A stretch of 64,000 bases of DNA from Obrimoposthia wandeli (taxonomy: Eukaryota): assembly GCA_977020255.1 (NCBI GenBank), contig CDROCS010000757.1, forward strand, positions 62,001 through 126,000, given 5' to 3'. Positions 5,608-37,226 of this stretch are shown here, piece after piece. Both the position numbers and the translations under genes were made by a program. The first letter of the stretch is position 1; the number at the start of each line of letters is the position of its first letter. A model generated the notes under the pieces. It saw only the letters and a list, made by a program, of their open reading frames with translations, was not told where the DNA came from and did not search any database.

Positions 5608-5693
5608 GAAATTTCACTTCACACACATGCACGATTTTAAAGGACGATGGGAAAGGGAGGGGGAGTGGATTAGATCGGACATATCCACCTACT
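5608..5693 (+). mobile_element. Solo Polinton-type terminus, family A (right end)
   Basis: GAAATTTCACTTCACACACATGCACGATTTTAAAGGAC...GTGGATTAGATCGGACATATCCACCTACT; followed by GATGCG. Confidence 0.85.
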
Positions 5694-9004: not shown

Positions 9005-9639
9005 AGTAGTGAGATATGATGACTTCGACTGATGGTTAAAGGATACCCCCTAGCAAAAACTGATTTTTTTAAATAAAATTGCGCGAAAGTTTTTTAGAAT
9101 TTTTTTTAAGGCAGATGTAGGTCAAGGTCAAGGTCAAAATTTTCTCGAGTAAATATGATATTTTAAGGTCAAAGTCATTTGAAAGTCATTATGTACTATA
9201 GTAGATCTATTTTAAGCTATTTTTTGTTTGGCGCGTATTCAAATTTCGGTTGATTCATGGTGTTTTCCCTCAAATTCTGAAGGTCATTAACAATTAAGGT
9301 TATAATTTTTTAAATTGCACATGTTTATAAAGTCAAGGTCATGATCTAGTATTTAAAAAGTTCTTTTGTTTTAACACATCAATTTTGATGCGCGCAAATT
9401 CAAAAGATTTGCGCGCGAAAACATATTTTCTAAGAAATTTTTGTAAAACTTATTTAAAAAAATTTCAACTACTTTTATTTGAGAGTAGAAAAAGTGTTTC
9501 TAATATTAAGGTATTTATTACACATAACTTGCAAAAGTACATTTTTAAACCTATGAGTTAAACAAGTAAATAGAGATAAAGAGAGATAGTAAAGAATAAT
9601 TTTTATTAAAGATACATACATTGTTACACAATAATCTCT

Positions 9640-10234
9640 TCATAATATCATAATCTTCATTACTTCGATAAATCTTCATTATCACAATCATTCTTCTCAT
9701 CAATGCAATCCTTCAGCAGCATGTTGTCTTCGTCATAATCCAGCATCTAATCTTCATTTCTTCAATCCTTCATCGCAATCATCTATCTTTTCTTCATCTT
9801 AATCCTCCATCTTCTTCAACATCCTCATCTAAAAATATTTATTTACAAAATAATTATCACAATCTTACCTGGAAATCTGACATCAATTCATCTTACCATC
9901 TTCGTCTCATCAATATAATCCATCATCGCAATCACTCATCTTATCTTCATTATCACAATCTCTCATCATTCATCTCATCATCTTCATTATCGCAATTTCT
10001 CATCTCATCATCTTCATTTCTGCTATCCTTCATCTTTCATCGCAATCATTCATTTTGTCTCCATCATAATCTTCATCTCAGCATTGCAATCCTTTATTAT
10101 CTTCATCTTGTCTTCATCGCATTCCTGCATATAATCTTCATCTTCTTCATCTTCATCATCTAAAAATAATTACTTACAAGATATTTAATGAAAACTTACC
10201 TACAATTGGAAATCAATTCATTATTAATCGCCAT
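9640..10234 (-). pseudogene. Decayed spliced Asp/Glu/Cys-rich repeat ORF (DCDNED-like repeats), partly duplicated in the right TIR (11923-12230, +)
   Basis: Begins ATGGCGATTAATAATGAATTG, followed by two about 40-nt GTAAG..TTTTTAG introns. Exon fragments include DDEDEEDEDYMQECDED, RNCDNEDDE and KDCIDEKNDCDNEDLSK. Many frameshifts. Confidence 0.5.
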
Positions 10235-10589
10235 ATTGTATTTTCAAATTTTATTGTTGATTATTTTCAAAATTAATTATTTAAAATAAAATCAATTATG
10301 TTTTAAATTACTAATATAAATAATTGGAAATATTTATTAAGTTAAAATCGTTAATATATTTTATTAGTTACTTAAATTACTAATAATATAATTTGAAATA
10401 TTTATTAATTATAATAATCAATACATTTTAAAATATGCAGAGAAATATATATATTATGTATTGATTCATACATGTTCAAAGAGGGAAATTAACAAGGTGT
10501 TTACAGAGGAGAATTCCCCGAGAAGGGTTATTTAGTGATATTATTCAATTGTTTATCCTTTGAAGCTTGATTCTAATTGGCTGATGATG

Positions 10590-11340
10590 TTGTTTATGTA
10601 AATGACATAGAAGACAAATTGATGGATCAGATGAGATATTAGCCAGATGGTTCTAGAAGATAAATTTATGATATTTAAAAGATTTAACGAGAGTATTGCT
10701 TTCAGAAGAGATAAAATGTAGTCTTAAAATGGGTTTACAGGGGATTTATCAGGGGTGTTGATTACAGAATAGAAATTATAACCTGTAAAAGGGTTCAGAG
10801 GGTGATTCAAGATGTTTCAGAAGAGGAAATTAGTAGGTTTTAGAAGAAAATTTAGATATTATCAACTTAGAAGGATTTTAGAAGGGAAACTTACGTAGAA
10901 GACAAATTGTTGGTTCAGAGGTGTTATTACCCAGATGACTCTAGAAGATAAATTTATGATATTTAGATGGTTGATAAGCAATTTCAGGAAATTATTTAAT
11001 AGAGATACGAAAATAAATTAACAAGGAAATTGAGGTATGTAGGTGATTAAGAAGAGAAAATATAGAAAGAGGACTCAGAGAGGGAATTAATGGGAGAGTC
11101 CATGGGTTTCAGAAGATAATTAATAGTCTTTAAAGAAGGGTTCAGATTTTTACCCAGATGGTTCTAGAAGATAGAATTAGGGGTTTTAGAAGCAAATTTA
11201 AGCATAGATATTAACAATTTAACAAGAGTTTAGAAGGGAAAATAACATAGAAGTCAAATCACTGGTCAAGAGGAGATATTACCTAGATGCTTCTAGAATA
11301 GAAATTGATGATATGTAGGTGATTAAGAAGTAAATTCATG
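10590..11340. repeat. Degenerate purine-skewed internal repeats (about 230-350 bp period)
   Basis: The motif (C)CAGATG..TCTAGAAGATA(A/G)A(T/A)TT recurs near 10640, 10930, 11155 and 11283. TAGAAG(A/T)CAAAT recurs near 10608, 10896 and 11248. Confidence 0.6.
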
Positions 11341-12937
11341 AAATGTATGATATTTAGAAGATATGGGTAACAGAAATTAACAAGGTGTTCAGGAAATTAA
11401 TGATATTTAGGTTTAAGCATAGATGATTAGTTACTTTTCTTCTACTTAATCCCCTCAACCACCACGAGATTAACCTCTTCTTAACCTCCATATTATTATT
11501 CTCTTCTTAGAGCAGAAATTATGTGTTATTTTATGTCCTATCTTTATCATAATTTCTAACATAAAGATGGGATACATGATTCGAATAAACAATTTAGCTG
11601 TAAGACCCTCTGATATAATTCCTCTATTAAGTCACAGTAATTTAGGTAAAGATACTCAGAGTATGTTTCGGTTAGAATATTAGCAGTCAACCTGTTAGGG
11701 TAATTCGAGATATCATTTCCGCATACTTGATAATTGATTTATAGTATAACTCTGAAATTGATCCAAGACAGTTGAAGTATCAGTTATATATAATATCCTA
11801 TCTTTATTTGATAATTTCTATATAAATGCATTCCCACTGAAGCCGATTAGTTATATATAATGTCTGCTAAATAAGGAGTCTCTGAAATTGATGAGTTAGA
11901 AATTATTATGAATTATAGGATAATGATGGATTATATTGATGAGACGAAGATGGTAAGATGAATTGATGTCAGATTTCCAGGTAAGATTGTGATAATTATT
12001 TTGTAAATAAATATTTTTAGATGAGGATGTTGAAGAAGATGGAGGATTAAGATGAAGACAAGATAGATGATTGCGATGAAGGATTGATGAAATGAAGATT
12101 AGATGCTGGATTATGACGAAGACAACATGCTGCTGAAGGATTGCATTGATGAGAAGAATGATTGTGATAATGAAGATTTATCGAAGTAATGAAGATTATG
12201 ATATTATGAAGAGATTATGGTGTAACAATGTATGTATCTTTAATAAAAATTATTCTTTACTATCTCTCTTTATCTCTATTTACTTGTTTAACTCATAGGT
12301 TTAAAAATGTACTTTTGCAAGTTGTGTAATAAATACTTTAATATTAGAAACCCTTTTTCTACTCACAAATAAAAATAGATTCAATTATACAAAATAAGTT
12401 TTAAAATAAAAAAATTCAGTTTAACAATTTATAAAACTTTTTTTACTCTCAAATAAAAGTAGTTGAAATTTCTTTAAATAAATTTTACAAAAATTTCTTA
12501 GAAAATATGTTTTCGCGCGCAAATGTTTTGAATTTGCGCGCATCAAAATTGATGTGTTAAAACAAAAGAACTTTTTAAATACTAGGTCATGACTTTGACT
12601 TTAAAATCATATGCCATTTTAATAATTATGACCTTAATTGAGAATGACTTTCTGAATTTGAGGGAAAACACCCTGAATCAACCGAAATTTGAATACTCGC
12701 CAAACAAAATTGATGCATTTTAAAAAATTAGCTTAAAATAGATTTACTATAGTACATAATGACCTTCAAATGACCTTGACCTTAAAATAACATCTGCCAT
12801 AAAAAAAAATTCAAAAAACATTTCGCGTAAATTTCAAAAAAAAATTGAGTTTTCGCTAAGGGGGTATCCTTCAACCATGAGTCGAAGTCATCACATCTTA
12901 CTACTTCGGTGTGTTGAAATAATTGTTGATAGACAAC

Positions 12938-13106
12938 AGTAGGTGGATGTGTCCGGTCTAATCCACACCCCCCTTGTCCTTTAAAACCGTGCATGTGTGT
13001 GGAGTGAAATTTCACTCCACACACCTACACGAAATTTCACTCCACACACATGCACGGTTTTAAAGGACAAGGGGGGTGTGGATTAGACCGGACACATCCA
13101 CCTACT
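12938..13106. mobile_element. 169-bp palindromic mini-Polinton (MITE-scale), family A
   Basis: Perfect 76-bp TIRs (12938-13013 and 13031-13106) with a 17-bp spacer. Termini are AGTAGG..CCTACT. The 6-bp TSD GACAAC is at 12932-12937 and 13107-13112. Confidence 0.92.
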
Positions 13107-13789
13107 GACAACCTACTCGAATTGTTAAAACTTTTACCGTTGGTGTAATAATATAATTCTTTTCTACAGCTGACTAGATTAATTTCGGGTACCCACATAT
13201 CGTTGTAGAGCCATATCAACCACGTTACACAGCACACTACATTAGTGGGAACCACATCAATTATATTTGTGAACACAACTCTGTATACACCTGGCAACAC
13301 AATAGCAAAAAACCTTCAGATTTGAGACTGAGTTAAGCAAGACAAACCAAAAATAGGCCACGTCCATCTGTAAGCCCTATTGCTACAGAACTCTCCAGTT
13401 CAATACAATCAGAAATCGGTCATGTTTATCATCAATCAGACAGTCAATGTTTGAGTGCATTAATGTAGGCCAAATGAATATATCATATATCAAGTTTATC
13501 ATAATTTAAAATATCCAAGATTTCATAAACTAGGCATGTGCACTCTTTTGGCTCGAGGGCTACATATTACCTTTTCCTATGGTTTTGGATTACACTTGAA
13601 ACAATATATTTATTAATTATAGATGCAATTATTTTAATGTGCAAAAATGGTTTGGTTAAAATTTATTAAAATTTATTCTGGAAAATATCTGATCCCACAT
13701 GTATGTGTTTTCAATTTTTTTTTATGAAACCTCTTTTTGGGAGGATTCTTATAAAGCTGTAGCAAGAAAAATTCTTTGAAGATGCATTT

Positions 13790-14003
13790 AAGATTATAAT
13801 TGTTTTGCAGATGATTGATCATGAAAAATTAATAAAATAAAAGAAAAATATTGGAATCACTGGAAAAGAGCTAAAATGGCATAAAAGTTATTTACTTTTT
13901 CACAAACAATGTGTCGTAATTGATTGCACTGTCTCTGATCCTGAAAACTTTAAATGCGGTGTTATCCAGTGTTCAATTCTTGGTCTAATTCTAGTTTGAA
14001 TTT
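13790..14003 (+). mobile_element. Non-LTR retrotransposon (CR1/L2-like) reverse transcriptase fragment
   Basis: MIDHEKLIK*KKNIGITGKELKWHKSYLLFHKQCVVID...CGVIQCSILGLIL resembles the LINE RT segment DHxILLxKL..GIxG..LxWFxSYL..RxQxV...GVPQGSILGP. Confidence 0.75.
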
Positions 14004-17000
14004 ATTTTGGTAGTAGCGGTAAGTGTCCACTCTCTGCACCTATATCTGGATCTCATCCCTCCGGGCGAGGTGAAGGCCCAAATTTATGTGCGGGGAGTGA
14101 ACCCTTGGCCTTTGGACTTTGATTCTTGGTCTCTCAGTAAAGTAAATCATCGTTTACGACATTTGCAAGACATTTTATCGGGGAATTTAAATTGGTCATA
14201 CAATACTTACTATAAGAAATCAATCATTTTCAAAAGTACTTTTATAAAATTACATTTTGGCGGGATTCAAAAAAAGCTTTTCATAAATAGAGTTCAAGAA
14301 ATCCAAAAGTTTATTTTGCGTACTATAAGATATCGTGATATTTAATAGAGGGTTTTGGATGAAATTTCGGCACAAATTCAAATAAAAAATACAAATACAA
14401 ATTTGACTACATTAAAGAAAAATAGTATTTTTTAAATAATGTGCAAAATTAATTAAAATACATTTTATATTCCCTAAAATTTATAATGAATTCAAATCGA
14501 TAGTTGCCATGTAACCTTAAACAAAAATTTCATCAAAATAAAGAAATAGTAATCAAATAATTTCATTTTAACCAAAATTCTACACTGTTTTCAAATAAAT
14601 TAATTAAATTTGAGTTCATTAAAACAAATTTTAAATTTTGTGTCAAATTAAATTTAAGCTTAAATTTTACACTGACTACAAATATAATAATAAAATTTTG
14701 ATTTGAGTTCAATAAACAACTACTATATATTTTATTCGTCAAACAATTAAAAAAAAAATTTTAAATTAGTTTCAATCTATTAATACAATATAATTCCCTT
14801 TTGTTTAATTTATTTAATTAATCCAATTAATTCAACTATATTTTCACATGATTTATTAAAGTTGTAGTAGACCTGTTAGAACTTTCTTAACCAAAATGTT
14901 GTTTTAAATTCAAATTTAAAATAAAAAAACAATTATTTTCAATCTATCCAAGTTACAGGAAACTTTCTTTTACAAAGATGTCACTCATCATTACCGGGTC
15001 ACCATCTCACTCTAAGTTTACATAATGATTAAAGTCAATAGAAAAAGCTTAGAAAACATAAATATTCATTCAAATTGTTCAGTTTATTTCAGAAACAGTT
15101 TTGTTTTCATTTTCGCAATTTCTCTAGCTAAAGTAAATTTAAAATACTATTTTATAAAAAATAAAGTCATAATAATTGAATATATTCAAAAGCATTCCAG
15201 AAATTAATTTCGCTGATGTGTAATTGCTGAAATATTTTCTTTTGTAACAAGCAAATAATTCTTTTGATAAACTTGTAGTTAATGCATAGAACATATCGAT
15301 GTTCCTATTTTTAAAACTAAGTTGAAACTAATGAAAAACGGTTTTCCTTACGTTTTTTAATCAATTTCAATGTATAAAAGTTTTAAAGAATCATATTTGT
15401 TAAACTTATATTATAGAACGAGTTCATATATAAATATATATTATTTGATTAATTTGTAATTAATCCACATGTGCGTATATATATTGAAATTTTAAAAAAT
15501 GTATTATTGTTTAAAATACACGAAATTTCCGAATACTTTAATCTTTTTAATTCTATACGTCTCATTTAAGTCTCGAGATGTCTGTTTCACAGATAAGCCA
15601 TCCTGTATTATCGGGTCACCATCTCCATATAAATTAAATAGAGTGGGTAAACATCAATATTTATTAAAAGTTTATAGCATAATACCTCATTTGGTAATTT
15701 TCCATATTGGTTTTAGGTTTTGTCTTGTATCCTTGATTCATGATGAATAGACTTCATTTTCATGTCATTGTCAACTTTCCAATAATCGTCAAAATATGTT
15801 AATCAGCACGAATAATTATTAAATTATTATGAATCTTTAACTCAATATCTATACGATGAAAGATGTCATTCAGTTATTTGATGTCTTGTTCATGGATATC
15901 TTCAGTGGTGTATTCAAACTTGATTTTATTCAATTTGACATGATTGGAGAAGATATATGTTTCTAGATTCTTTAATAAATACATATCCTTCTCACAGTAA
16001 TGATAAGGAGATTGAAATTGAGGCTTCTTTATTTCGTTTATATTCCTTTCATTAATATCAGAGATATCTCATAATAAATGTTAGATACAATCTTTATTCT
16101 CCTACGTTCTTCTTTTCTTCAATGGAGTAGTGTTGACAACTGATTAGATCTTCTTCCTGTCTGGAGTATCCTTTAGAATTACCTTCTCGATTTTGTTGTT
16201 TGTCAACATTGTCAGAAATAATGGTTGAAATGAATAACCTCGCCTGATTGATCAATAATTGATCAACTTCACATATATCCATGCATACATATGTGTATAT
16301 ATGTTAGTATTGATATGTTTATACCACATGTATATATCAGTTATCACAGGTATGTCCCTGCATTGCGTTTACATTTCGTTTATATACATTTGAATATCTC
16401 GAATACTAAAACGTATTATAACTGTCAAAACTTTATTGTAAAATGAATTGATTATTTTATTGAGAAAGTATCATCTAGTTAAAATTAATTTAGAAAATAC
16501 CATCGTTATATTGAAATATATCTTAATACCGTTAATAAATATTTACTCGTTTTATATCAAAATTCAATTTTAATTCACATAGGTTATTGATAATTCTTAA
16601 AATTTACACATGAATTAATTGGGTTACATAAGCAATATATTTTCAAGCCAACACCTTATTATTGAAGTATTTACAACTGTTTATTTACAACATACCACTA
16701 TTTTTCAAAATTAATAAGAAAAAGGTGCTAGAAGTGGTATTGGAACTTACGCGAAGAAACCTCTAGTGCATATTGAAAACCGTAAATACCCAGACATTCA
16801 GCAGCGGAATAATTATGAAAACTTCTTCCTTGACTTCTAAGAATTCATCTTAGTCTAATCAAATAGCTCCTTTGCATATGTAATGTACGATAGTAGAAAA
16901 TCCTCTTGTTCTCAATTATATATCCTACTCGACTTCAACCCGATTTTTGATGATGCTTTCAAATTGTGAAACTTGTTCTTATCCCTGTCACGTTTATATA

Positions 17001-18298
17001 AGAAACTCTTTTGTAATCAAATTATAAAAACGTTATTTTGAGAAAATGTTGACATTATAATCTTGTTTGTGAATCGGGTCTAAGAGAAACTGAAATGGAT
17101 TATCGTTGTAAATACAACCTTTTACTATATGATCATAAAGGTTCTACTAACAACCCAAACTATTTGAAATAAATTTAATTTATGTTTTACAGTTGTTTAC
17201 TATGTAAACTTTCTACGTAAAACTTAAAAGTCTTTAAAAGTTTAAATTAAATATTTTCTGTGTATTGTTTAATTGCCTTAATGAATAAATAAAACTTTTG
17301 AGTAAAAGTAAATTGTAGATTTATTATACTTTAGCTCTATGTTAAATATATTTTTGGTATTGTTATTATTGTGATATCTAAAGAGGGAGATGGAATTGTT
17401 GAAAGAAGCAATAGAAACAACAGTATATGCACATATTTTGTTGATTTAATTATCAGGTTTGGTAATGGGATATACGAATGATACATTTAATTAAACAGAT
17501 ACAACGTAATCACAATTGCTACATCGGTGGTTACCAACTTAAATGGGGGAAATTATAAGAATGTTTATGTTTTTACCCGCGAATCTTTCACGAGAGAAAC
17601 TGATGTTTTTCTTTGATATTCACATAGAAATGTCTGGTGATACGTTTCTTTGAGATAACAGCTATATTATCGCTAAGAACTGGAAAATAATTCAAGTTTG
17701 TGAGGTATTTTGTAAGCTATGTACAATTAATTTATCCACCAACTTCGCAATTTCGGCTGATCCTTCTCATAAACGGCTTCTTGTACAATTTTTAAAATGT
17801 AATTTACGATTTCAGATACCGATACAATTTCAGATAATAATTATGACTTTTCTTTAAAAATCTTAAAATTCCGAAGCACTTGAAAAGTAATTTCTCAAAA
17901 AGAATACAGATCTTGGAAAGAGAGATGCATCGACATTTGTATTTTACACTTCAGTACGTCGATTTGTTCATTAGAGCTTGTCGATACATTGTTAAGAGTC
18001 TCCCTCAATGAAGATCATCTTAAAAGACAGACGTAGTAGACATTGATTGACGATTAAATCATAATGTTATTTTGAAAATTGTTACTTCCCTCTTATTCAT
18101 TTCTTAATTGTCCAAAAAACACAAAGAGTAGATTTATTATTATTGTACAGTGTTTTATTGGCCTCTTATCACTCCAGTAAACACAATTATGCTTGTTATC
18201 TCATTGAATAATGTCTCTCTAGTAGAACTTTAATTTTATTATCAAATTTATTCGGCTCGATGATTATCGAAAAGCGAATATATTTATGAAGGTTTTCA

Positions 18299-18301
<3 letters not shown>

Positions 18302-18329
<28 letters not shown>
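18302..18329. repeat. (AT)14 microsatellite
   Basis: Seen directly. Confidence 0.95.
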
Positions 18330-18332
<3 letters not shown>

Positions 18333-19037
18333 GATACTTTTTTAATTTTTTTAAAGTCTATTTATTGAAACGATCTTATTAATAATTAGCTTTTCTGCAT
18401 GTATCATAGAAATTTCTAGGTAATTATTAAAAATATTAATTAAATCTTTCTCGGTTTTCAAACTTCGGACCTCTTCGATTTAGGTTAATTCAATTTTCTA
18501 CGAATAATAATTGATCTTCGTGATATTCATATTAAATCGTTATTTTAAAAATACATAACTTGAGATTAAAATTGATTGGTCAATAGATTCCCTAATATTT
18601 CAATAATCGATTTTATAATGAGTGATATTTTTTATCATTTATTTGGTGATAAATGATGATGAGAAAAGTTGAATTTTTTATATTTATAAAATTCAACATG
18701 GTAACTTAATTTCAAAAATGCGTGAAATAAAATAAAAATGTTATAAATAATTATGAAGCACCCTCAGAATTTATTAAAAAGACAAATTGGCGTTGTAAGA
18801 TGTATGAAAAAGAATCGTTGTAATGGTGAGAGTTTGCAAAAGTAATAGAGAAATCAGTTCAGCCAATCTGCATCAGTCACCGTTTTTCTCGACGTTGATT
18901 CGTAGGAAATTTATTGTCATTGCTTCTAAATTGTTTGAGATACGGACATTTTGATTCTCATAGTGAACTTAACGAGGAGATTTATTGCTCCACTTCTCTA
19001 ATTGCTTCATTGGCCTGGCTGTGTGGACCACAGAAGT

Positions 19038-19145
19038 ATGAGCGGTCGAGAGAGCAGAGGAGTCGTGGTGAAAGGCAAGTTCAAGGTGCTGAAAAGAACC
19101 AATACAATGCATGCTTCATCCCAGTTCCAGAATGCTCGAGCTCTG
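19038..19145 (+). CDS. Candidate first coding exon (alternative N-terminus 1) of a host gene: MSGRESRGVVVKGKFKVLKRTNTMHASSQFQNARAL
   Basis: GC-rich island with acceptor CCACAG at 19033, ATG 4 nt later, 108 nt open, and a phase-0 donor GTACGT at 19146. Confidence 0.55.
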
Positions 19146-21079
19146 GTACGTCTTTCTAGTGATGTAGTTCATGTGTTCCAATGCATTTACAAACTTCTGG
19201 GTTTGGACAATTATACTGGATAAGGTTACATATAAAGAACTCCCGCTGAAAACTGTAATGATAAATTCCCTAATTTTGCCTTTTTTGAATGTACACTCTA
19301 TGGAAAATTAATTAAAACTTTATACATTGTTTATTTGATTGTATACAGTACATGGCATACATACAAACGTTCCACCGATTTCCAATTTTTTTATAAACTT
19401 GTTCTTCTCTATTTTCGACACAATGTGTATGTCAAGTTAGCAGTACACCTATTGTACATTAGTAAGTTAGAATGAGACATTTACTAAATTAATACCAGCA
19501 GTTGATGTTAAATTCCAATTACAGATTCTATCGATGATAGGATGTCGTATCATTTCTGGCCCATAGAGTAGGTTAGAATTGAATTTTTTAGGTAAAATTA
19601 CATGGAAGAATAAATTTACACAAACCTACACGGATGAGCACAAAGATGATCCAATTAAAATCCATCGAAGAGCACAATTTTTGATAAACTTACTAAGTTA
19701 AAAGGAAGTTAATAAGTTAAATATTTATAACAAGAAAATCAAATTTTGTGTATAGGAATTTTAACTGGATTTCCCGAATGATAATTAGTAAGTTTTTGAT
19801 TTACCTTCTTTGAAAGTTATGATTTTTTCTTAATTTTAATTTAAATAAAAACTAAATAATAAAGATGAAATTTATACTTGTTATGGGTTTTTAGGACTCG
19901 TAAAGCAAAACAGCAACTTCATATTACGTGTTTCTCCATCCTGGATTAATAAGGATAAACAATGGGCATGCTTTATTGAAGAGGTCCATAAAATGATACA
20001 ACTAAATGTTGAAGTCGATGTGAATTATTGGGCAGAATTTACAACATAGTGAAACCATACCTTTATGCCCATTTTATTTTGAGATGTAATTTTTTACAAT
20101 GCTCTATATTGTGGGCAAAAACCGGGAGGGGAGGGGGTCTTTATTACTCATCTCAATTTATCATGAATTTAGATTCATATTTTATAAAAGATATTAAATA
20201 CTCAATAAATAATAAAATTATTTACCATAATTTATCTTTTCAAAATTGGGTTGAAATCCTTAACCTATAAATAGCTTAACAGTCAATTTATCGTTAAAAT
20301 AACGATTTAGCAATATTACATATTCGAAAACTGTTTTGGTGACCAAATCTGAGGGGGGGGGTATTGGCACACATCACGAATAAATAAAATCTCAAAATCA
20401 AGTAAAAACAAAGGGATCCACTGACAACTACAACCTAGAAATTGCGCACCACATTCAAAACACAGTCAGGAGACACACACGAACACATTTTTATAATTAA
20501 TAATAAAAAAATATATAATTTTTTTTCATCAAATTTTACATTCAAGAATGAATTTAGAATTAGTGATATTCTATCTCAGATATTCTATCTCAGATATCGG
20601 TTAAAAAATAAAAAAAGAAAGTAGATGTGATTAAATTATTTTAATTTGAAGAATTTGCGATTTCATGTCTCAATTGACACTGTTAAATGGAAAATTTTAA
20701 TAATTAATATTATGAGAAAAAAATTAAAATTACGAGTTCTAAATTTAGAATTTTTATTCTATTTTTTACATTTATGCTCAGTAGAAATCTTGCAAAAAAT
20801 CTCCCGGAGCAAGGTAAACATGTTTACACAAATATAGAGGGTCATCATAAGTCACATAGCAAATATGATCTTTGTATTGTTTGGTCCCTTTGGTACACTT
20901 TGATACGCGAAAAATTATAATATTGGAATCGGGTAGTTACCTAAATAATAAAAATGTGAACATTTCCTCAAGGAAGATTATTGAAAATTTGGAAGTTACT
21001 ATTTCAAGAGTTATGGATAAATGACTGAATAAAAGGAATTAAAAATATTCCACGAATGTACTGAAAATAGCTCTCAGCA

Positions 21080-25029: not shown

Positions 25030-25998
25030 TGACACCAATTGTGTGAGAGGTTGAAATATTTGGAGAATAACGTCTCGTAAACGTTGTGGAATTGACAAGC
25101 ATACCTGTCGAATTGTGTCTTACGAAATAGCATAAAATATTTCACTAAATTTTGTGTTTATTGCTTCTGTAGACTTGCATGAACAGTTTTTGAGATATTT
25201 TTTACCAGAGCCCATATATTTTCAGTGGGGTTAAGTCTGGCCAATTTACAGGCCACGGTTGTAATAGTGGAATATTTGAGTTTAGGAAATATTGACTTGT
25301 TATGTGTGATTTATGAGGAGCAGCAGTGTCTTGCTGCACCATTCTGTCTCCTGGAAATGGAGTAAAGGCGGTTTGCAAGATTTCAATATACTTTAATGAG
25401 TTAACATTTCCATTGATATGCGTTACATGTCTCTCACCGCATCCCGAAATGAAGCCCCATAACTTTTCTTTTATCACAATAAATAAAGTTGAATACATAC
25501 CTTTTCTTAAATTGTGTATTGGGAGGTCTTCTAACAACAATTCTGTACCTATTACTGTTGTTTCGTCAGAAAATAAGACGTTTTTCCAATTTATATTCTT
25601 ATCATAACAAAATGTCTTAACAAATATTACCTTCTTTTTTTAGAAAAAACAGACGATCTTTTAGCCGTCCTTGCTAACAAATAAAGTCTTCTCATATGTC
25701 TTGACACGGTCCATTGAGAAACAACATTATATAAATCACATTCATTGATAACTTGACACGCAGATTTTCCCGGATTACTCATTATTGGCGTTTAATTCTT
25801 AACTTTTGAAGCTGGGTAAGTTTTTGTTTAGGCCCACTTCCCATTTTCTTTTTGAATAACCCATCTTTCTCGTACTTTTAAATAATCCTGTATACTGTAG
25901 ACTTCGCAATTATAAATATATCCGCAATATATAAATATGATTGACCACTTTTGTATATATTACATTATATTTTTTTTCATTAATGTGAGTTGAGGCAT
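25030..25998 (-). mobile_element. Tc1-family transposase pseudogene
   Basis: Contains the HTH-like IAKSTVYRII, then WKNVLFSDET, LWGFISGCG..NGNVNSLKYIEIL, QQDTAAPHKS and WPVNWPDLTP, ending SIPQRLRDVI. TIRs were not identified. Confidence 0.85.
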
Positions 25999-27023
25999 GA
26001 TTAAAAATTCAACTTAATTATACAAATTACTTTAATACGATCAATAGTTTTATAATTATGAATATACTATGTAGATTTTATAACGTAAGCATGATTTATA
26101 ACATCTTTACATTTTTTTACGCTCACTCAAATTTTAGTAATTAAAATTAATTATCTATTTATTTAAAACCAATCAAATAAAGTAAAATATAATAAATATA
26201 TATATATATATCATTTTAACACCTCATTATCTCCCAATTTGCCACAGTTTTATCTAAATAGATTATTAGTACTTATGAACAAAATATTGAATGAAAATTC
26301 ACAAATTATCGATAAATTAACTATACATTTGAACTATGTCGGTGGCCACTAAATGTTACCGTAAAATAAATAAATTCTAAGTTCAATTAATTTGAAAAGA
26401 AATGACAATGATAAATATCTAGTAATTCAAAGATCTAAATCGTGACAGTAATTTCCTAGTGTCTAAATCTAGGCTTTACAATAGTTTGCAATTACCAACA
26501 AGAAAGTTTATTAATATTGAAGATTTCAGAAGACACATCAGGAAGTTCATGTTTGGAATATGCTACAGTTAACTACTTAAAGTGGCTGATTTGTAGAGTG
26601 CCTTTGAAAAATAAGTCTTACAACTTTTAAGAAATTGGTACTATATTAAAAATATGTAATGTTATTAACCATTTTGGGATTAAAAGTTTATTATATTTAT
26701 AAAACCTGTGAAAATGGAACTTTATCATTTGTTTAAATGGTAATCAGTTTTGAAATATTGCAATAAAAAAAAGAATATTTAATTTAAAATTACAAAATAA
26801 TCACAATTTTTACATATATTTATTAATTATAAAATCTACTGAAAAATAAAATAATGTTAATATGCATAATAGAAAACAAATAGTGATATACAATGATTAT
26901 TTATATAATAATTATTAAATTTCAGAAATATCAAACAAAATGTATCAGAAAAAACATATTTAAAATTATTTTCATATGATTATTAACATAAATGACTTAA
27001 ATACTTTACCTTACTTAAAGGAC

Positions 27024-28753
27024 AGTAGGTACTTTGATGGAGTCTAGATCACTGGGGGGTCACCCTCTTGTGTGCGTACACCATGTTAAAGGGTGTCACT
27101 CCATAAGGGTGTCACACCATAGGGGTGTCACACCATAGGGATGTCACACCATACGGGTATATGTTGCCTTACCATAGGGGTGTCACGTTTCATAAGGGTT
27201 ATGTTGACTCACCATAGGGGTATCTTGCTACACCATAAGGGTCTGGCTCAGAAAGGTTATGAAGGTTTGAAGGTATGGTCGTGACCGTCTATGGTCGGCC
27301 AACATACCCAAGGTGTTGTGGTCGTTCATAGGTGAAAGGGTCGGACTCAGTTTTGACTTGAATGTTTGAAGGTATAATTAAGGTCTACTATGATTGTCCA
27401 TCACATCTAAAGGGCCATGGTCGGTCATAGATGAAGGGGTCAGGCTAAAGACAAAATCAAGTTTAAAATATCATGGTTGGAATTATCTTTAGAAGACGAA
27501 TTATTCCATAAAGATATAGTTGTTCATAGATGAAGGGTTTAAAAAAATTGGAATTTCATAGTTTCAAGTACATGGTTGTATTTGGCAACATATTACGAGT
27601 TTATTCATGTAAACATTTTATGGTCATCCACAAGTTAAGGGTCAGATTTGGAACAAACATGATAATTGTATTACATAGTTGTATTTGTCTATGAAAATTG
27701 AGTTCAAAGATACCCTTAAGGTCATGCATACTTTTAATTAAGAGGTCCTGGTGAAAAATACTTGTAATTTCAAAAAATAATATATTTTTAAATTTAAATT
27801 TGTGCCAAATTTTTTATGGTTTCTATTGATTTAATTAAACAAATTTTAATTTAACGGGTTTTTTTAAATAAAATATTAAAGGAACATTATTTAAAATAAA
27901 TATTAAGGAAAATGTTAATAAACTCAAATTACTTTACTAACAGTATTTTTTTCTTCTCATAAATATTTAAATTTATGCAAATTTTTATCCATTTTATTAA
28001 TGTAATTAAACAATTTTGTTTAATAAAATTAAGATTTCCTGGTGGAAAAAAAACTTGTAATTTTGTTTTATTCAAAATTAAATTTGTGCCAATTTAATTT
28101 GTTAGATATTATTAAAGTTAAACAAATTTTAATTTATCAGGTTTTTAAATAAAATATTAAAGTACCAAACACATCTATAGTAATCAGTCAATTATTCTAT
28201 GTGAAAGTTAAAGTTCACTCTTATCAGTTAAGAAATGTATTACGTAATAATAATAATACACACTATTATATGTGAAAATTTAGATCAAAGTTTTTTCCCA
28301 GGCTTACGCATCTAAAGAATTATGGTAACATTTCTTTAATTAACTGTAATTATATGTCATGCATACTTTAAGGGGTCCTGGAAAAAAATACAAATACTTG
28401 TAATTTTCAAACAAATAAATATATATTTTTAAATTTAATTTGTGCCAAATTTTTCATTGTTTCTTTGATTTAATTAAACAAATTTGATTTTAAACATAAG
28501 TATCAAACAAATGTTAATTATAAAATAAAAGAAATAATTAATAATTTGATAAATATCATCTTACCACAAGTTATTCATCGAATCCATTGATCATATACCC
28601 TTATGGTGTGACACCCCTATGGTGAGGCAACATATACCCTTACGGTGTGACATCCCTATGGTGTGACACCCTTGTGATGTGACACCCTTTAACATGGTGT
28701 GCTCACACAAGGGGAACCCCCCAAGTAGTCTAGACTCCATCAAAGTACCTACT
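27024..28753. mobile_element. Non-autonomous Polinton/Maverick-type element, family B, 1,730 bp
   Basis: Both ends read AGTAGGTACTTTGATGGAGTCTAGA (25 bp identical, inverted). The 6-bp TSD AAGGAC is at 27018-27023 and 28754-28759. TIRs of about 160-210 bp contain CATAAGGGTGTCACAC arrays. The interior has about 100-bp (27320-27540) and about 320-bp (27720-28490) direct repeats and no ORF of note. Confidence 0.9.
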
Positions 28754-29499
28754 AAGGACAAACGTGACTTTACACAAAAAAGGTTTTGTTTTCCTTTTGC
28801 AATCGTTCTTCTAGATAAAACTTCTTTAAATTGGGCCTTAAGCGGCTTGAACCCATTTTTGAGACCTTTCTTTTTATTAAAATAATCAAATTCAGAATAT
28901 TCCGACAGATAATTCAATTGTTTAGTTTTGATGTTCTCGGGCTAGCGGAAATAGGAGGAAAATTATGAAAACTATAAATTACAATGAATATTACGGCATA
29001 ATGTGTCGATTATCTTTGAAGTAGAGCAACGTTCGAGATTCGTCTGATTGATTACCTGCAGTAATTCATGCACACCGAGTTGTATTTCCGAAACGAAAAT
29101 TTGCCCCTTAATTGCAAACTAAGAACAGTAGAATGTATGGAAAATTATGAAATGGAAATTCCTTGCCTTTTATAACTAACAAGGTTCAATCGATTTTTCT
29201 TTAAAACAGGAAAATTCACTTTTCTATACGAGGTGTTTTTTCTTTTAACGATTGAGCGCATAGAGAGAGTTTTGAAACAAATGTTGAACTACGAAACGTT
29301 ATCACTGGCTTACATTTTCTGCAACTGTCTTGACAGGCTGTAAGGTAGTTTACACACAACCGAAATGATAAGTTACTGATATAATAATACAAAATCATGA
29401 CAAAAAGTTATGAAACGGAGAGCTAAGGAAATGATATAGGAACCGTAAAAGAGAAGAAAAACAATAAAACCAATGAGTTATAACTTAGAGTAAATCAAG

Positions 29500-29547
29500 A
29501 TGTCCGTGCTCACAAGTTGTACATTAGAAATCTGTGATAGCCAAATG
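29500..29547 (+). CDS. Weak candidate alternative first coding exon: MSVLTSCTLEICDSQM
   Basis: Acceptor-like TAACTTAG at 29488, ATG at 29500, and a phase-0 donor GTGAGG at 29548. It is short and could be chance. Confidence 0.25.
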
Positions 29548-29665
29548 GTGAGGTCTACTCCAATACATATACCCTCAAGTATCAGCTGAATATGACTTAC
29601 TGAATAATTTTATATTAAAACAAATAACATACTTGACCAAATAGTACGCCTAGATGGGTTAAAAC

Positions 29666-29791
29666 TTAAATAGTATGTCACGTTTTCATATCCAGGTTGC
29701 AGAAAATGTCATATGTACAGAAAAAATAAATTTACATATTTATCAATTAAATAGTATGTCACGTTTTCATATCCAGGTTGCAGAAAATGTC
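29666..29791. repeat. 45-bp exact direct repeat (29666-29710 and 29747-29791)
   Basis: TTAAATAGTATGTCACGTTTTCATATCCAGGTTGCAGAAAATGTC occurs twice, 36 bp apart. Confidence 0.9.
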
Positions 29792-30574
29792 CAGAATAAC
29801 CGCTTACATAAGTGAGCAGCATTTTCTAGCTTTTGAAATTTCATGAAATTTACGATAATATTAATTTTAAATACTAATAATAAATTTTAAGACGAATTTA
29901 TGCTTAACATTTACCATACATATTTTATTAAAAGAGAAATTAATAAATTATTTTTTTAAAAACCCTTTAGTTATAATAGCATTTAAACACAATTAAATTG
30001 ATCTTTTAGTTCAAAGTTTCTCAGTTTAAGCCAGTTTTTAACAGTTATACATAATTAGAATAATATCTTATTAAAAAACTTACTTTTATTTAAAAGTGAT
30101 ATTCATATATTCAAAGGGTACATAGTACTCTGTTAAATTTGGTATTGTTAAAATTAATATTTATAAGATCAAGTTTATATTTTATTGAATAAAATAAAAT
30201 AATAAATAATAGGAAAATTCTAATAATTGAAAATTTTATAATATTAGAATAAGAATCAAAATTTTGGACAATTCATTTCAATTCATCATTCTTCTTAAAG
30301 GCTACAACTTTTGTCATTCAGACGAGAACGAATACGAAGAGATACAGAAAATTCCTTTTTAAAGTCGACATTGCTGAGTCCGATGGTACTTAAATTATCA
30401 AATATGTGCAAGTTAAATTCTTGTTTTCTTTTTTCATCCGCATTTTGTTATCTCCTGTTAATCTACAATTTATTCTGTTCTGAGTATGATGCTACGGAGC
30501 AATTCAAAGCCTATTTAAGTTTAATTCCTCTTTCAGCACTAAAAATCGTCAATGAAAATTTTATATATTTATTT

Positions 30575-30890
30575 ATCCAACAACTGTGTGATCTTTGACA
30601 TAGCTCTTCTTCTCCGAGTCTTTTTTTATTCGTGGTATTGTGACTTCTAAAGCACATCTGAGATCATCTTCCACCAGAAATATATTTCTATATGTAGTTT
30701 TCTTAACTAAAACAGTTGCAAATCTTTACAAAGATACGCGAAAGAAAAAGGTAGAAACATGTGCAATTCAATATGAAGACATTTCCATTGAACAACAGAA
30801 CTTATTCAGTGTATTTGATTCGAATGTATCTTTAGCCGGATAATCGTTGTTCAGTTTTAAAAAAAATCAGCTTCAACTTATTCATCGATT
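30575..30890 (-). mobile_element. hAT Charlie/Buster transposase C-terminal remnant
   Basis: LNNDYP...FATVLVKKTTYRNIFLVEDDLRCALEVTIPRIKK..LCQRSH matches the Buster-type ending KTKYRxRLxVEDDLRxALS..PxI..L....SH. Confidence 0.65.
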
Positions 30891-31824
30891 TTTGAAACAA
30901 CACAAATAAACAAATTTCTGCTTAAGTCAAAACTTGGTTGATGGAAATATGGAAAATACCTATAGAAGTAAAGCTTCAAGTTTGAGTAATTGACCTAAAA
31001 TCTGTGTTAAATGGCAAAGATTTTCTGTATAAAAATAATTATATTAAAAAGTCTTATTTAAATAAAAAAGTTTAAAAAAATTTAATTTCGAAGTAAAAAA
31101 TTATATTAAGAAATATAAAATTACATTTAAAATTAATATTAATAAAACCATCAGAACTTTAAATATATCATATGAAATATTATTTTTAATCTGCATTACT
31201 TTTTTGTTAAAGTTTTATTTAAACAAAGATGAAATTTTCTTCCTAAATAAACTTATATTAATAGAAATTAAACTTTGGTTCCGCGTGGTTTAAATATTCT
31301 TAACTTATAAAATCAATATCAATTAAATTAATCATCATCATTGTTTCTTTGTTTTCTCCTGTATAATGCATACCAAAATCGATTATAAAATATTGTACAA
31401 TGCACATATTAAATCGAATTTAAAATGTTTTTCAATTGTTATTAAATTATTAAAATGGATATGAAACAAATATATTATGAAATTTAAGACATTTAAAATC
31501 AAATTTATTTTTTCTAAAGTTTATATGCACTAAATATTTCACATTTTTCAATATATACATAACCGTTTTATCAATAAAAACTCGATATACCACATCTTTC
31601 ATAATTATGTCATTCTTTAACACCAAATCTATTTATTAAAAATATACAATAAGCGTTTAGTTTATTAAAAAAGCATAAAAACAATACATTAAAAGTCATT
31701 TCAGTCATTTTTTAAATACACATGATATATTCGCGTCCGGAGGGCGTGAATTGTAGTCACTCTGATGGTGTGACTGGGGCTCCCAATATGCGTCGATTTT
31801 TTTGCGTGGGGACCCGCTTCCTCT

Positions 31825-31928
31825 TGTTGCTTTTTTCAAAATTTCACTCCACACACATGCACGGTTTTAAAGGACAGTGGTAGCCCCCTGGGGGAGGTGG
31901 TGCATTAGACCGGACATATCCACCTACT
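31825..31928 (+). mobile_element. Solo Polinton-type terminus, family A (right end)
   Basis: AAATTTCACTCCACACACATGCACGGTTTTAAAGGACAG...CATTAGACCGGACATATCCACCTACT; followed by AAAATA. Confidence 0.85.
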
Positions 31929-34149
31929 AAAATACTAAACTACAAAGTAAATATAATATAAAAAAAATCAAAATAAATATTAATAACTAAAAAAAAAAAT
32001 TGTATTGTCTGAAATTTTGAAAATTTGGGTACTTTAGAATACGTTTGCTATTTGCATTTTTGTTTGCTAAACATTGAGAAATGTAAAATATAAATATATT
32101 AAAAAATAATTATCTTTACGTGTGATATTGTGAACAAATTTCACAACGTTCTCGTGAGTACATGAAATAGCGTGGTGAAAAACGTTTTTCATTTTAAACC
32201 GAAAAACAGTAATTAGAAACAGAATTTCCTCATTTTTTAAATCGTTTTTTCTCCTTAAATAATTGTCTTTTTACACATGCATAATCTTTTGTGTCCTTTA
32301 AGTTTAAAAATGCTTGAATTGGGGAACACGTTTGTTGGTTTATAAAAATAACTAATAAATAAAATTTGAAAACGGCAAATCTTGAGTTTCTAACTCCATT
32401 TAATCAATCAAATTATGACAATATTTACTTGAGTAATCTATATTTAATCAAATTGTCTATGATTGTGTCAATGAGTTGAAACAGTTGAATAAATTTTCCA
32501 ATGAAAGCAATGAAACAAAATTGATTTTTCACCGGATTTAAACAGGTTACTCAAACGATTTTCCTCAATCTTCCTCAATATTCCTCAATACCAATCCACT
32601 GAAATCAGCGCTATTTTGCAATTTTAATTTCAGAAAATAGACCCAACATTGAAAATCGATTTTGTATTCTTTCTTCGACATTTTCTGAATCCCTCATTCA
32701 CTAGATTTCTCCAGCACAGACAGTCGACGTATTAAGCAGAAATTAACAGATGCATTTGCAGTTCTCTACGACACTTTTTCACTAAATCTAAATGACTGAC
32801 CTAATTTTCATTACCAGTATTTTTGTTTCGGTATCAATTTCAAATTATTATTAAAATTTCATTGAATACACTCGGTCAAACTGAATGCCATGAGTATAAA
32901 GATGAATTATATAACCTATAATAAAATGAAATTAACCACGATAGCAATATGATAAGTGTCGCTGACTCAGTAATTTTTGTATATTTTTAGAAATAAATTG
33001 GATTTTCCTTCAAATACACAAGAAAAGGTGAGACATTTATTTATATATATTAAATAACCCACTTAGCCGCCAACAATGTTTAAACATTGAATGAAAATTA
33101 GTAAAATATGATCATATTTGTTACTGAAGTGCAGGAATTTGGGAACCTGGATTGAAGATTGGATCATATCCACCATCTTGGTCATCCATTGATTCGTTGT
33201 AAGCTCGCTTTGAACTGGTTGTTGAGCAAAGAATGTGCCAGTCATCCCATCTTCCATATGCTCCAATCCAGGCCTCTTTGAGCTCAGGAGAGATTCTAGA
33301 TAAATCTTAAATATATATCGGAAAAATCTACATTAACTTATGTTTCCCTGAAAGGCAACATCTCCACCCTAACATCAGAGTTATGATCCTATAATTATTT
33401 TTTAAATATCATAATATAAATATAAAGTGAATCTTCAGAAACATTTGATAGTTCATCCTTTCATCGCTAGGGGATATATTCTCTATATTATCCTTGTATT
33501 TTAATCAAAACAACGGGACTATCCAATTTTATAAAACACTCTTTATAAAAAGTACCAGCACTTTTTGTTCTGTCCCTCATGCGTGTCCCAAAAACGGAAT
33601 GCAGTACAAGATCATGGAGGCAGTCGGAGACTTGTCATTGAATGTGTTGTATCGAGCCTGTTATAAATACTTACTTTGTTTTTGATTTGACTTTTGAAAG
33701 TGTATATAAAACTGATCCAAAATGTTCATGGAAATTGATAATCATATAATTCCTTTTTGGCCATCTTTTTTTATCAAATTGAATTTTATAACTGTGATAT
33801 TTAATATGATTGAGTGTAATTTACAATATCCTTTGTAATAATCAAAATACAAATCAGTTTCTTTTGTCAAACCAGTATAAACATCTAATCAATAAAATAA
33901 ATATTCTCAATCAATATGTAAATAATTAATTGCCAAATACTGCACAAAATTTTGAATTTTTTTCAAATTGGTATTTACAAACATAGTTAATGAAAATTTG
34001 TACTTTAAAGCATAATTTACCTTTTTTATAAGATACATATATATTTGCAACTATTTTTAATTGTAATTTCAATGTTTGGATACTATTTAAATTCATTTCG
34101 ACCTTTAATTTTAAGGTTAATTATTTTCGAAATATAAATAATTATCTTA

Positions 34150-34770
34150 TTCAATTATATGTCTGAAGAGTTAAAACCGAGCAATCAGTTTTAATGGCAC
34201 ATAGTATAGGAATGGAAAAAAACAATGCTTGTTATCCTATTAGAGAAACTAAACGTATAACCTACTCTTTAGGATTGGGTACACAAGCTTTTAATAAGGA
34301 TAACAATTTTGGTGATGTAAGATTGCAGAAATTTGTTTTAATTTCATTTCAAAAAACTTTACGGTTTCTAGGAAATTATACGACAGATGCAACTCAATTT
34401 GACAATCTTAATGGGGTTCAGTGACACTTTCAAAAAATATCGATTATCGTAAAACCTATAAAACAGATTTCGAAGGTAACGCTTATGCTTTGGCTTATAC
34501 GCAATATATTATTCAAAATTTGGTCAACTAGATAAAAATATAAACAATGGTATTTCTTTCACTGAGTTTAAAAGCAGCTGCCCCTTCTTCACATTTGTTT
34601 TGGCACCAGACTTTGATATAAACCAATGCCAACTACCAAAGGATGGAAATTTACGACTAGAAATTAAGTTCAATACAGCTTTAACACATCCTACTACGGT
34701 GCTTATATACGGAGTATTTGATTCAGAAATACAAATGAACAACAACAGATCTATTTGGTTAATATGGTGG
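34150..34770 (+). pseudogene. Polinton/Maverick (adintovirus-like) major capsid protein, C-terminal fragment, frameshifted
   Basis: Reads VLMAHSIGMEKNNACYPI..QAFNKDNNFG..FLGNY; KTDFEGNAYALAY; NGISFTEFKSSCPFFTFVLAPD..KDGNLRLEIKFNTALTHPTTVLIYGVFDSEIQMNNNRSI. This follows the recalled family pattern AKYPI..AFxGxY..YxxAY..GI..F.F.LTPD..GNLRLExKF..L....VIVYxEFx..IxIx.xR. Confidence 0.8.
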
Positions 34771-35677
34771 GTACAGAATAAAATTTGCAGTTAAAGAAAA
34801 TATGATAAACAATTTAATATATAATAGAATGTTTAATTTTAAAAAAAAATATTAAATTTAATAATAATCTATAGTTTTTTAAACATGTATTATTATACTA
34901 TTATTTTCTTCAGAACATATTTGTTAAAAGAACTATAAAGTCAAAGATAAAGTATAGTAAACATTATTTTATAAACGTCTAACTAATTGCAATAAATATT
35001 TTAAAAAGTAACTAAATATAACAATCATTTTAGTCGGCGCAATTTTTCATGGGGTTTATAAAAATTTATGGTAAATGAATTAGAATTATTTGGGAAAAAT
35101 TAACTAAAAAGACGATCTTATTTATATTTGATATTTTTTTATAATTGATCTAACTGCTATTTTCGATTTAAGGGATAGATTTATCAACAGGGTTTTGAGA
35201 GTCGAGTCTTTCACTATTCCAATTAAAATATTGCGCAAAATTGAATGATAGCTGCTAATTATAAAACATCAAACTATATTTTGGTATTTTAATTAAATTT
35301 CCCTATTTTGAAATGTCAGGTTATTTTATAAGATTGGTTCCTTGGAAAGTATATTTATTCAGTTTAATTAATAAGTACAGAAATATCCCAAAACCACTTC
35401 TATTTCCAGACAGAAGATGGCCCGAAATGAAATCTCATGAGGTTTGACATTTGCATCAGTAGAATATGATTTCATTTCTGCTTTAGAGGTCTACTTTCTT
35501 GTCGAAGAAATGTCAACATATCCGTCTATTTTTATATAACATTTAAGTAACCTATTGAATGACACTGTATAAGCCATTCCGTGTAACAAAACTAAAAATT
35601 GCCTAATTTAAATGTTTGAGGACAGTGTACATTCATCAGGAGTGTTTATTCTTTATAGAATCAGTCCAAACTGACGG

Positions 35678-35779
35678 ATGTTTGAAGGTATCAATTTTCG
35701 TAGTTCTCCTCGTATAATCCGTTTTGTTTGCTCAATTGAAAGAGTTAAAAGGTGTCGGGCAATTCGACAATTGCGTCAG
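35678..35779 (+). CDS. Candidate alternative first coding exon: MFEGINFRSSPRIIRFVCSIERVKRCRAIRQLRQ
   Basis: Acceptor CTTTATAG at 35658 and ATG at 35678 preceded by an in-frame stop. It is open for 102 nt and ends at a phase-0 donor CAG|GTACTC. Confidence 0.4.
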
Positions 35780-36651
35780 GTACTCGTTTACCCTCACATG
35801 TACAGTCGACTTCTACATTCGTGAACATTACGTGCACCTTTCAATCGATATCAATCAACCTCATCAGAAGTTTGAAAGCTCTAGTTAACATTTTTGGCAT
35901 TTGTATGAAATCATACGACTTCAATTTGATAATAAGATGAGTACGTTACATCCCCAGTACTTCTAACCATTCGCTTTATCAGATATAACTACGCTACAAA
36001 CGAGGGAAACTTCGGATCGTTCGGTTTGTCTTTAACCTCTTAAGTATGTTTGTCATCAATTTACATATCAGAACAGTTTTGGTCCTCCACCCCAATTTTC
36101 GCTGGTGTCAACCTCCCCACGTTTATCTGGTCTCCTTTCGATGAACATCTTCAACATTGATCTCAACCCAGTGGTCCAGAACATCAGCTTGGTCGTGAAA
36201 TATTGTCATACACAAACGATTTCACCATAATATCGATTTCTTCTGCACAACAATAGATCATGGTGAGTCGCACGGTTGACGCTGCGCGCTGGAGCAATCT
36301 TTGCAATACTGACAGGTTTTACTGTTATCTGGGAGTGCATTTCAAACCCATTAACCAAATATACAAACAGTGGCATTAGTAAAATTTTACCCTTCACTAT
36401 TGTTTTATCAAATCGATAAATTAATAACACAGTGCAACTTGAAAATAAGGAATAGTTTTGCATCCTAAATTCGACACAAATCATTCGAATGCACTATCGC
36501 GTCCAGAAATGCGACTTTCTTTGGTAATTTATACACATTTCTCAAACACTTATATACACTGCACAAACTCAAAGATATACCATTTGAAGCGTCATAAACA
36601 GATGAATCCGACAGATGAATACACTTCTTATTCTCGTCAAAGATTCAAGTT

Positions 36652-37226
36652 AGTAGGTACTTTGATGGAGTCTAGACCTCTTGGAGGGTCCCCCTTGTGT
36701 GCGCACACCATGTTAAAGGGTGTCACACCATAAGGGTATCACACCATAGGGATGTCACACCATAAGGGTATATATTACCTCACCATAGGGTGTCACACCA
36801 TAAGGGTATATGTTACCTCACCATAGGGTGTCACACCATAAGGGTGTCTCACCATAAGGGTGTCACGCCATAGGGATGTCACACCATAAGGGTATATGTT
36901 ACCTCACCATAGGGTGTCACACCATAAGGGTGTCTCACCATAAGGGTATATGTTACCTCACCATAAGAGTGTCACACCATAAGAGTGTCACACCAGAAGG
37001 TGTCACGCCATAGGGATGTCACACCATAAGGGTATATGTTACCTCACCATAAGGGTATATGTTACCTCAACATAAGGGTGTCACACCATAGGGATGTCAC
37101 ACCATAAGGGTATATGTTACCTCACCATAAGAGTGTCACACCATAAGAGTGTCACACCAGAAGGGTGTCACACCATAATGGTGTCACACCATAGGGATGT
37201 CACACCATAAGGGTATATGTTGACTC
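36652..37226 (+). mobile_element. Solo family-B Polinton-type left terminus with expanded subterminal minisatellite
   Basis: Begins AGTAGGTACTTTGATGGAGTCTAGAC, preceded by CAAGTT. About 510 bp of 15-23-bp units follow (CATAAGGGTGTCACAC, CATAGGGATGTCACAC, CATAAGGGTATATGTTACCTCAC), then an abrupt truncation. Confidence 0.88.

Follow-up and report, generated by a model that had tools for sequence, protein, structure and literature searches.

A stretch of 64,000 nucleotides from Obrimoposthia wandeli (contig CDROCS010000757.1 of assembly GCA_977020255.1, positions 62,001 to 126,000; hereafter the window) contains three short elements without genes, each of which begins with AGTAG, ends with CTACT, and is bounded by an exact 6-bp target site duplication (TSD). 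The question raised by this locus is where such elements, which resemble Polintons (Mavericks) at their ends, come from. The initial annotation took them for three unrelated families of satellites that parasitise endogenous Polintons and interfere with them over a wide range of sizes. We find that the elements are real and Polinton-derived and that they are not a system of three unrelated satellites. It is reasonably probable, in our judgment, that they are gene-less Polinton derivatives of two origins, namely copies produced by helper enzymes and afterwards rearranged (elements A and C) and the collapsed remains of a full-length Polinton of family B (the B mini).

Element A (9005-12905, 3901 bp) is a gene-less Polinton derivative with two 'left' ends, flanked by TCGGTG at 8999-9004 (+ strand) and again at 12906-12911. 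The B mini (12938-13106, 169 bp) consists of a terminus, the subterminal palindrome of the family-B terminal inverted repeat (TIR), and a second terminus, and lies between copies of GACAAC at 12932-12937 and 13107-13112. Element C (27024-28753, 1730 bp), also gene-less, is flanked by AAGGAC at 27018-27023 and 28754-28759. No strand is assigned to any of the three elements, which start with AGTAGT (A) or AGTAGG (B and C). The annotated coordinates are exact. When all AGTAG sites (44) and CTACT sites (46) of the window are paired, exactly these three pairs combine a terminal match of at least 24 of 30 letters with an exact 6-bp TSD, and no such pair occurred in any of 60 shuffled windows (maximum 0). 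Polintons are described in the accessible parts of two papers (PMC8097293, PMC10748475) as elements of 12.7-24.6 kb whose TIRs measure 46-1,447 bp and whose ends start with AG or are of the (AGT)2 type, with 6-bp TSDs and a gene set of pPolB, INT, ATPase, capsids and protease. This gene set is absent from A, B and C, as had been annotated: their longest open reading frames (ORFs) starting with ATG encode 57, 19 and 54 amino acids, and tblastn found no match in them to Polinton genes beyond spurious TIR frames.

The Polinton origin is borne out by the AG-starting TIRs, the 6-bp TSDs, and the presence of B ends on coding elements elsewhere in the assembly (1.35 Gb, 6,912 contigs). We distinguish seven families, A to G (labels assigned in this analysis), with 19,760 exact end motifs in B, 11,588 in D, 2,443 in F, 2,391 in E, 2,298 in C, 1,171 in A and 689 in G. 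The sum of 40,340 ends corresponds to about 20,000 elements, a figure perhaps inflated by sites that were assembled twice (L003/L018 and L147/L150 have common flanks). A search with the polymerase profile PF03175 produced 24,442 first-look candidates, and all 91 that were scored exceeded the cut-off. Family B elements measure 16.1-17.7 kb and carry genes for an rve integrase (PF00665), a PF03175 polymerase, a Pox_A32 ATPase and a capsid; three of the seven long ends that were followed belonged to complete copies, with TSDs matching at 6/6, 6/6 and 5/6 positions. All six polymerase loci of family D are complete elements of 11.7-12.5 kb with exact TSDs, and the sizes are 16.2 kb in E, about 15 kb in F and 11.4-13 kb in G. 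The coding families B, D, E, F and G agree with Polintons in ends, TSDs and genes (see also the accessible parts of PMC6431247 and PMC3014272), unlike the three window elements, which have no genes. The copy number of Polintons in this assembly stands far above that of vertebrates, where the maximum is 287 loci (PMC8097293), and that of Trichomonas, for which 388 copies of pPolB2 are given (PMC10748475). In E, F and G, copies agree at 98-100% in their capsid and integrase genes, so that the spread is recent. As a rough estimate from long copies of 10-17 kb, Polintons may fill a tenth or more of the assembly. They are often nested (L097-L098, L183/L129, L277-L279, L148/L194): G elements sit inside B and inside a D derivative, F elements inside A, and D elements inside C, and the inner elements keep their own ends. 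Families E, F and G were considered as coding partners of A or C and rejected, each being nested and having its own ends.

The key to the B mini lies in the structure of the long B TIR, in which a terminus of about 30-36 nucleotides is followed by a palindrome of about 100 bp closed by C and G runs (z = -12). The palindrome is whole at both ends in two of four long copies and partly deleted in the other two. A palindrome that is present inside both TIRs is, by simple geometry, therefore also a direct repeat across the element. Short B elements of the window type, which we refer to as minis, form a sharp size peak: 56 measure 123-153 bp, 281 measure 154-184 bp, 66 measure 185-215 bp and 12 measure 247-277 bp, and the first three bins account for 806 of the 19,760 B ends (4.1%). 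Besides tandem repeats of about 35 bp, the inner TIRs of family B (L097, L105, L108) contain long microsatellites of the (CACAC)n type, which vary in length.

The flanks of the minis are informative. For the first 40 listed of the 281 minis, the TSD is exact in 26, matches at 5/6 positions in five and is missing in five, while in the remaining four the host flank itself is inverted. Together with three cases from the first search there are seven inverted-flank minis. Six of them run through 21-69 bp of inverted host DNA and then re-enter the TIR interior, and one is inverted throughout the stretch shown. Several of these flank copies differ from each other by mismatches. The inverted-flank class forms only in the chromosome, because only a chromosomal switch of template copies host flank.

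The internal polarity of the minis points to the site of the junction. We typed the C tracts of 39 of the 43 other B minis (four were dropped) and found 16 with two long tracts, eight with two short tracts, and 15 mixed. The long tract is on the native-reading side in 14 of the 15 mixed minis (p = 0.001), which places the junction at the G run that closes the palindrome. The polarity is the same in the inverted-flank class, where the long tract is host-side in all four mixed cases of known side. Symmetric in-register recombination as the sole route to minis is disfavoured by this 14:1 polarity.

We lean towards the view that the minis are 'solo-TIR' by-products of template switching at the TIR palindromes. 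On reaching the far side of the palindrome, the new strand would stall or break, and the G run at its 3' end would then re-anneal to a terminus. If its own terminus is chosen, copying would proceed back into host DNA for 20-200 bp before returning, which would yield the inverted-flank class; if the opposite terminus is chosen, the interior would be deleted and the original TSD retained, which may be the route to the TSD class. Our assessment is that the minis with TSDs probably arise in place, an assessment held with some reservation.

A direct repeat inside the TIRs predicts minis of matching size in other families with palindromes. Palindromes are found at about 8-240 (variable) in D, 7-177 in F and 14-60 in G, whereas A, C and a coding element on contig C184 have no TIR palindrome and E has short ones only. 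At the predicted sizes there are 23 minis in F (169-199 bp), 12 in D (229-259 bp) and two in G (76 bp); the 154-184 bp bin holds none in G and four in E. The mini rates are 2.8% in B and 1.9% in F versus 0.33% in the control family E (p = 7e-10 and 3e-4, respectively). In all four families with such minis (B, F, D and G), the size and sequence of the mini agree with the TIR palindrome, as expected from a direct repeat in the ends of the parent. Of ten F minis examined, six have exact TSDs and four have inverted flanks, while among ten D minis eight have exact TSDs, one matches at 5/6, and one has a 9-bp inverted flank before the sequence goes back into the TIR. Beyond the main palindrome, the end motif recurs several times in the TIRs of D (for example L168 and L162) in inverted and decayed form, as if fold-back had taken place repeatedly, and the length of the D palindrome is unequal at the two ends of one element.

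Much of this evidence also bears on a different explanation, in which the strand of a free Polinton snaps back at the TIR palindrome during protein-primed strand-displacement replication and runs off the end, and the integrase then inserts the resulting tiny two-ended molecule, which creates a new 6-bp TSD. Minis would in that case be mobilised in trans, although each would be made anew from a parent. The exact TSDs (26/40 in B, 8/10 in D, 6/10 in F), the position of the junction on the far side of the palindrome, and the mini sizes that track the palindrome of each family are all consistent with such copy-back. On the other side, the inverted host flanks demonstrate that the same structure arises in the chromosome, and the two arms of a single mini are often unlike in terminal variants. 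A B mini of only 68 bp also speaks against insertion: it keeps its TSD, and its empty site is present in the window's A copy. The persistence length of DNA is about 150 bp, and 68 bp is short for synapsing two ends, which favours an origin in place. On balance we regard copy-back as possible and rather improbable. Slightly more doubtful still is the extended proposal that the palindromes of B, D and F function within the replication origin, like the terminal hairpins of adeno-associated virus (AAV) but on a protein-primed genome, with the TSD minis being integrase-inserted copy-back genomes; if it is true, the minis preserve fossil traces of Polintons replicating outside the chromosome and of defective genomes in this class of viruses.

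Sequencing polymerases have difficulty with near-perfect hairpins, and the inverted-flank structures look like fold-back chimeras, both of which could suggest that hairpin reads folded back or collapsed into false minis in the library or the assembly. Such an artefact is very unlikely in view of the exact TSDs on most minis, the private substitutions and mismatched inverted-flank copies, which imply age, and the presence, within the window's A copy, of the unoccupied site that corresponds to the 68-bp mini. The right junction of the window mini, moreover, is spanned without mismatch by an independent 255-bp short-read contig from the same sample. In contigs from three runs of that one sample, the region 12640-13420 showed no clean empty-site joint and no full-length allele; nearest to an empty-site joint is a connection of 12928 to 13143 in one contig, with a 22-letter side. 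The possibility of a target-site preference, raised by two minis with GACAAC, was dropped when 26 further exact TSDs showed no pattern, and the coincidence is taken as chance.

Do minis multiply as minis? Among 42 B minis there is no mini-specific haplotype, and the only widely common variant also occurs in a long end. Identical minis amount to one pair in 50, and the private substitutions average 1.7 per 97 bp. There is no sign of amplification of B minis. These observations weigh against the model of the initial annotation in its general form, in which three independent lineages amplify from their own small copies as satellites or miniature inverted-repeat transposable elements (MITEs) and parasitise or interfere with helper Polintons. 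What speaks for this model is found in families A and C, whose gene-less interiors are 80-93% alike in many copies at different sites with TSDs. The particular A and C elements of the window nevertheless do not fit it, as described below, and there is no evidence of interference. We consider the model unlikely as a whole.

The interior of family A yielded 2,993 first-look candidates. The one complete long copy measures 8,239 bp; its TIR is 47 bp long, its two arms are unlike each other, and its TSD is exact. A very long TIR of 2.8 kb was rejected on account of this sole complete long copy. Three A pairs gave one exact TSD, one at 5/6 and one inverted flank. Element A of the window is made of the left arm, i.e., the first 2920 bp of the ~8-kb family, followed by an inverted copy of the first ~983 bp, and this junction is absent in all 17 other A copies (16 run on and one breaks earlier). 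Several other A copies have inverted left pieces at other points, and in one of them (C2463) the host flanks are inverted for 200 bp or more in place of a TSD. The inner arm of the window copy at 9522-9926 (405 bp) is 99% complementary to 11923-12327, compared with 79-93% in the outer parts of the arms, and this difference makes it likely that one arm was recently copied onto the other. No gene set belonging to A was found behind the 19 A ends screened; the genes near those ends belong to nested B, D, E and F elements. A decayed accessory ORF related to ORFs of E and F is present in four A copies, and the end motif resembles that of the coding element on C184. At the other end of the A parent (L139:1313-1400), a short telomere-like (TTAGGG)n run lies about 60 bp inside the terminus.

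The ends of family C differ from those of D at positions 8-12 only of the first 30 letters, and the two families also have in common a 16-bp subterminal repeat and a 163-bp segment at 85% identity. The C ends are sister to those of the coding ~12-kb D family with its long open genes. One of 20 C ends (L143) is directly adjoined by a decayed, frameshifted set of D-like genes in D order, while the genes beside a second C end (L152) are those of family G. At eight of the 20 loci we found ten C pairs of 1.6-5.8 kb (two of the ten being the same sites counted twice), with TSDs exact in eight and 5/6 in two; apart from a polymerase tail of 21 aa they contain no gene. The first 100 listed sites include 17 C end pairs within 20 kb, of which eight are 10.6-13 kb apart. 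Element C of the window consists of the first 1568 bp of the family and an inverted copy of its first ~160 bp, a junction absent from all six other copies that reach this point, all of which run on. At G000:C52:645217-691771, 15 C-type ends in tandem with a 3.32-kb period form a satellite array derived from a C element.

Several of the original claims can be judged from these data. Consistent 6-bp TSDs do occur genome-wide (exact in 26 of 40 B minis, 8 of 10 C pairs and 6 of 6 D elements). Coding copies with the same TIRs exist for B (16.1-17.7 kb), in the form of the decayed L143 copy for C, and behind none of the 19 ends for A. The families cannot be called unrelated, given what C has in common with D, including the C end that heads D-like genes at L143, and the decayed ORF in A that is akin to those of E and F. 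Mobilisation in trans, proposed for all three, is likely for families A and C, which by their sequences are gene-less multi-copy families probably spread by helper enzymes, because many gene-less copies occur at different sites; the B mini is instead likely a product of collapse. As for the series of satellite sizes, the window A and C are one-off rearranged copies with two 'left' ends, and the B minis, at about 4% of ends, are non-clonal and partly formed in place. The homogeneity among copies that is expected of a MITE is seen in the interiors of families A and C and is lacking in the window A and C junctions and in the B minis.

Several observations weigh against the two-origin explanation that we prefer. 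No site was seen with a full-length element in one allele and a mini in the other. Integration in trans explains equally well the 31 of 40 minis with an exact or 5/6 TSD, and the polarity is also compatible with snap-back on a free linear genome. The D minis, 12 per ~5,800 elements (0.2%), are not above the control E (4 per ~1,200), with one 31-bp size bin counted in each of the two families. Finally, a screen over 10-20 kb at 19 A and 20 C ends, a set that excludes the eight C pairs at 10.6-13 kb, revealed no element that combines intact genes with exact ends of type A or C.

The gene-less A and C families alone are ordinary non-autonomous derivatives; they fit non-autonomous Polintons or MITE-like derivatives in having the ends and TSDs of a coding family without its genes, whereas the B minis differ from MITEs in lacking the typical clonal amplification. 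Both the original description of Polintons and Repbase reportedly name non-autonomous families. A literature search that covered few subscription papers found no dedicated study of them, the sole phrase match being Tlr1 (PMC5499653, in part), and the accessible part of a recent preprint (bioRxiv 2025.02.07.637071) does not treat gene-less Polintons. The same search found no report of palindromes in Polinton TIRs or of solo-TIRs. The new points are the TIR palindromes, of 100-230 bp in B, D and F, the two classes of solo-TIRs and fold-backs, and the size of the Polinton load.

Solo long terminal repeats (LTRs) arise when the interior of an element is lost by recombination between direct repeats, a process to which the collapse into solo-TIRs would correspond in Polintons. 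Copy-back defective viral genomes and AAV-type terminal hairpins likewise have two identical ends around a hairpin and no genes; copy-back genomes are known as free replicating molecules, whereas the structures described here are known from chromosomal copies alone. The nearest mechanism is the nearly precise excision of Tn10, in which the interior is lost by copy choice between direct repeats and the ends and original TSD are left, as proposed for the minis (PMC12524634, from the part available). Our case differs from both Tn10 and solo LTRs in that the direct repeat comes from a long palindrome within each TIR of a eukaryotic virus-like element and in that a sister class with inverted host flanks exists. 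This fold-back class represents TIRs that rearrange host DNA, and rearrangement of host loci by Polinton TIRs is described for C. elegans in the accessible part of bioRxiv 2024.01.15.575659.

To our knowledge, Polinton replication has so far been inferred and not watched. About 20,000 copies, family-specific palindromes and hundreds of minis together offer a direct population-genetic test of replication and of shedding by the host. For annotation, the results carry the warning that a short AG..CT element should not be taken for a MITE simply because it has a 6-bp TSD.

The decayed capsid gene annotated at 34.2-34.8 kb is indeed present. It is a broken 3' part of the family-B major capsid gene (34153-34752, + strand), spread over three frames, 91.5-92% identical to the corresponding part in full-length B elements, with no TIR adjoining. 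A structure model derived from six natural capsid ORFs (of low confidence by pLDDT) has its top matches in the major capsid proteins of Sputnik and mavirus, and the Atlas assigns the capsid with very high confidence to a double jelly-roll (DJR)-like cluster. Pfam recognised neither the capsid ORFs nor the window fragment, and a PDB sequence search did not recognise the capsid either. One Pfam scan of a 1255-aa D polymerase ORF gave Endonuclease_7 only; the same locus passed PF03175 otherwise. Protease matches to PF00770 (E 0.0005-0.04) remain below the curated cut-off. An accessory gene of family D (L168:7248-7757) contains a TATA-binding protein (TBP) domain (PF00352, E 1e-11, over the cut-off; the Atlas score is likewise very high), with homologs at 41-67% in B, E and F loci by tblastn, and the literature search found no report of TBP in Polintons.

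All five annotated solo ends were found, although just two of them, those at 31928 and 36652, lie within the annotated interval 9005-37226. The B-type end at 31839-31928 (- strand) belongs to an older subfamily (~80% to young B ends), and the C-type end at 36652-37230 (+ strand) carries an expanded array of the 16-bp repeat. Further B-type ends are at 372-407 (- strand) and 46820-46855 (- strand, 36 bp only), and the one at 5693 terminates a truncated, diverged B-like Polinton at 3313-5693 (- strand), outside that interval, whose interior is 68-73% similar to B accessory ORFs. A fourth, E-like decayed derivative occupies 55284-59397; it has inverted repeats at 55284-55566 and 58790-59074, an end of another type at 59397 and no left end, and its coding remnants at 56480-57547 match E ORFs at 36-63% and reach the start of the ATPase. 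The window also contains a fragment at 15679-16019 with 67% similarity to the accessory-ORF region of the family-A parent, a Tc1-like ORF piece recognised by eye at 25202-25639, a broken hAT transposase at 42216-44936 (- strand, PF05699 match), and a piece of an integrase at 61709-62062 (weak rve_3 match).

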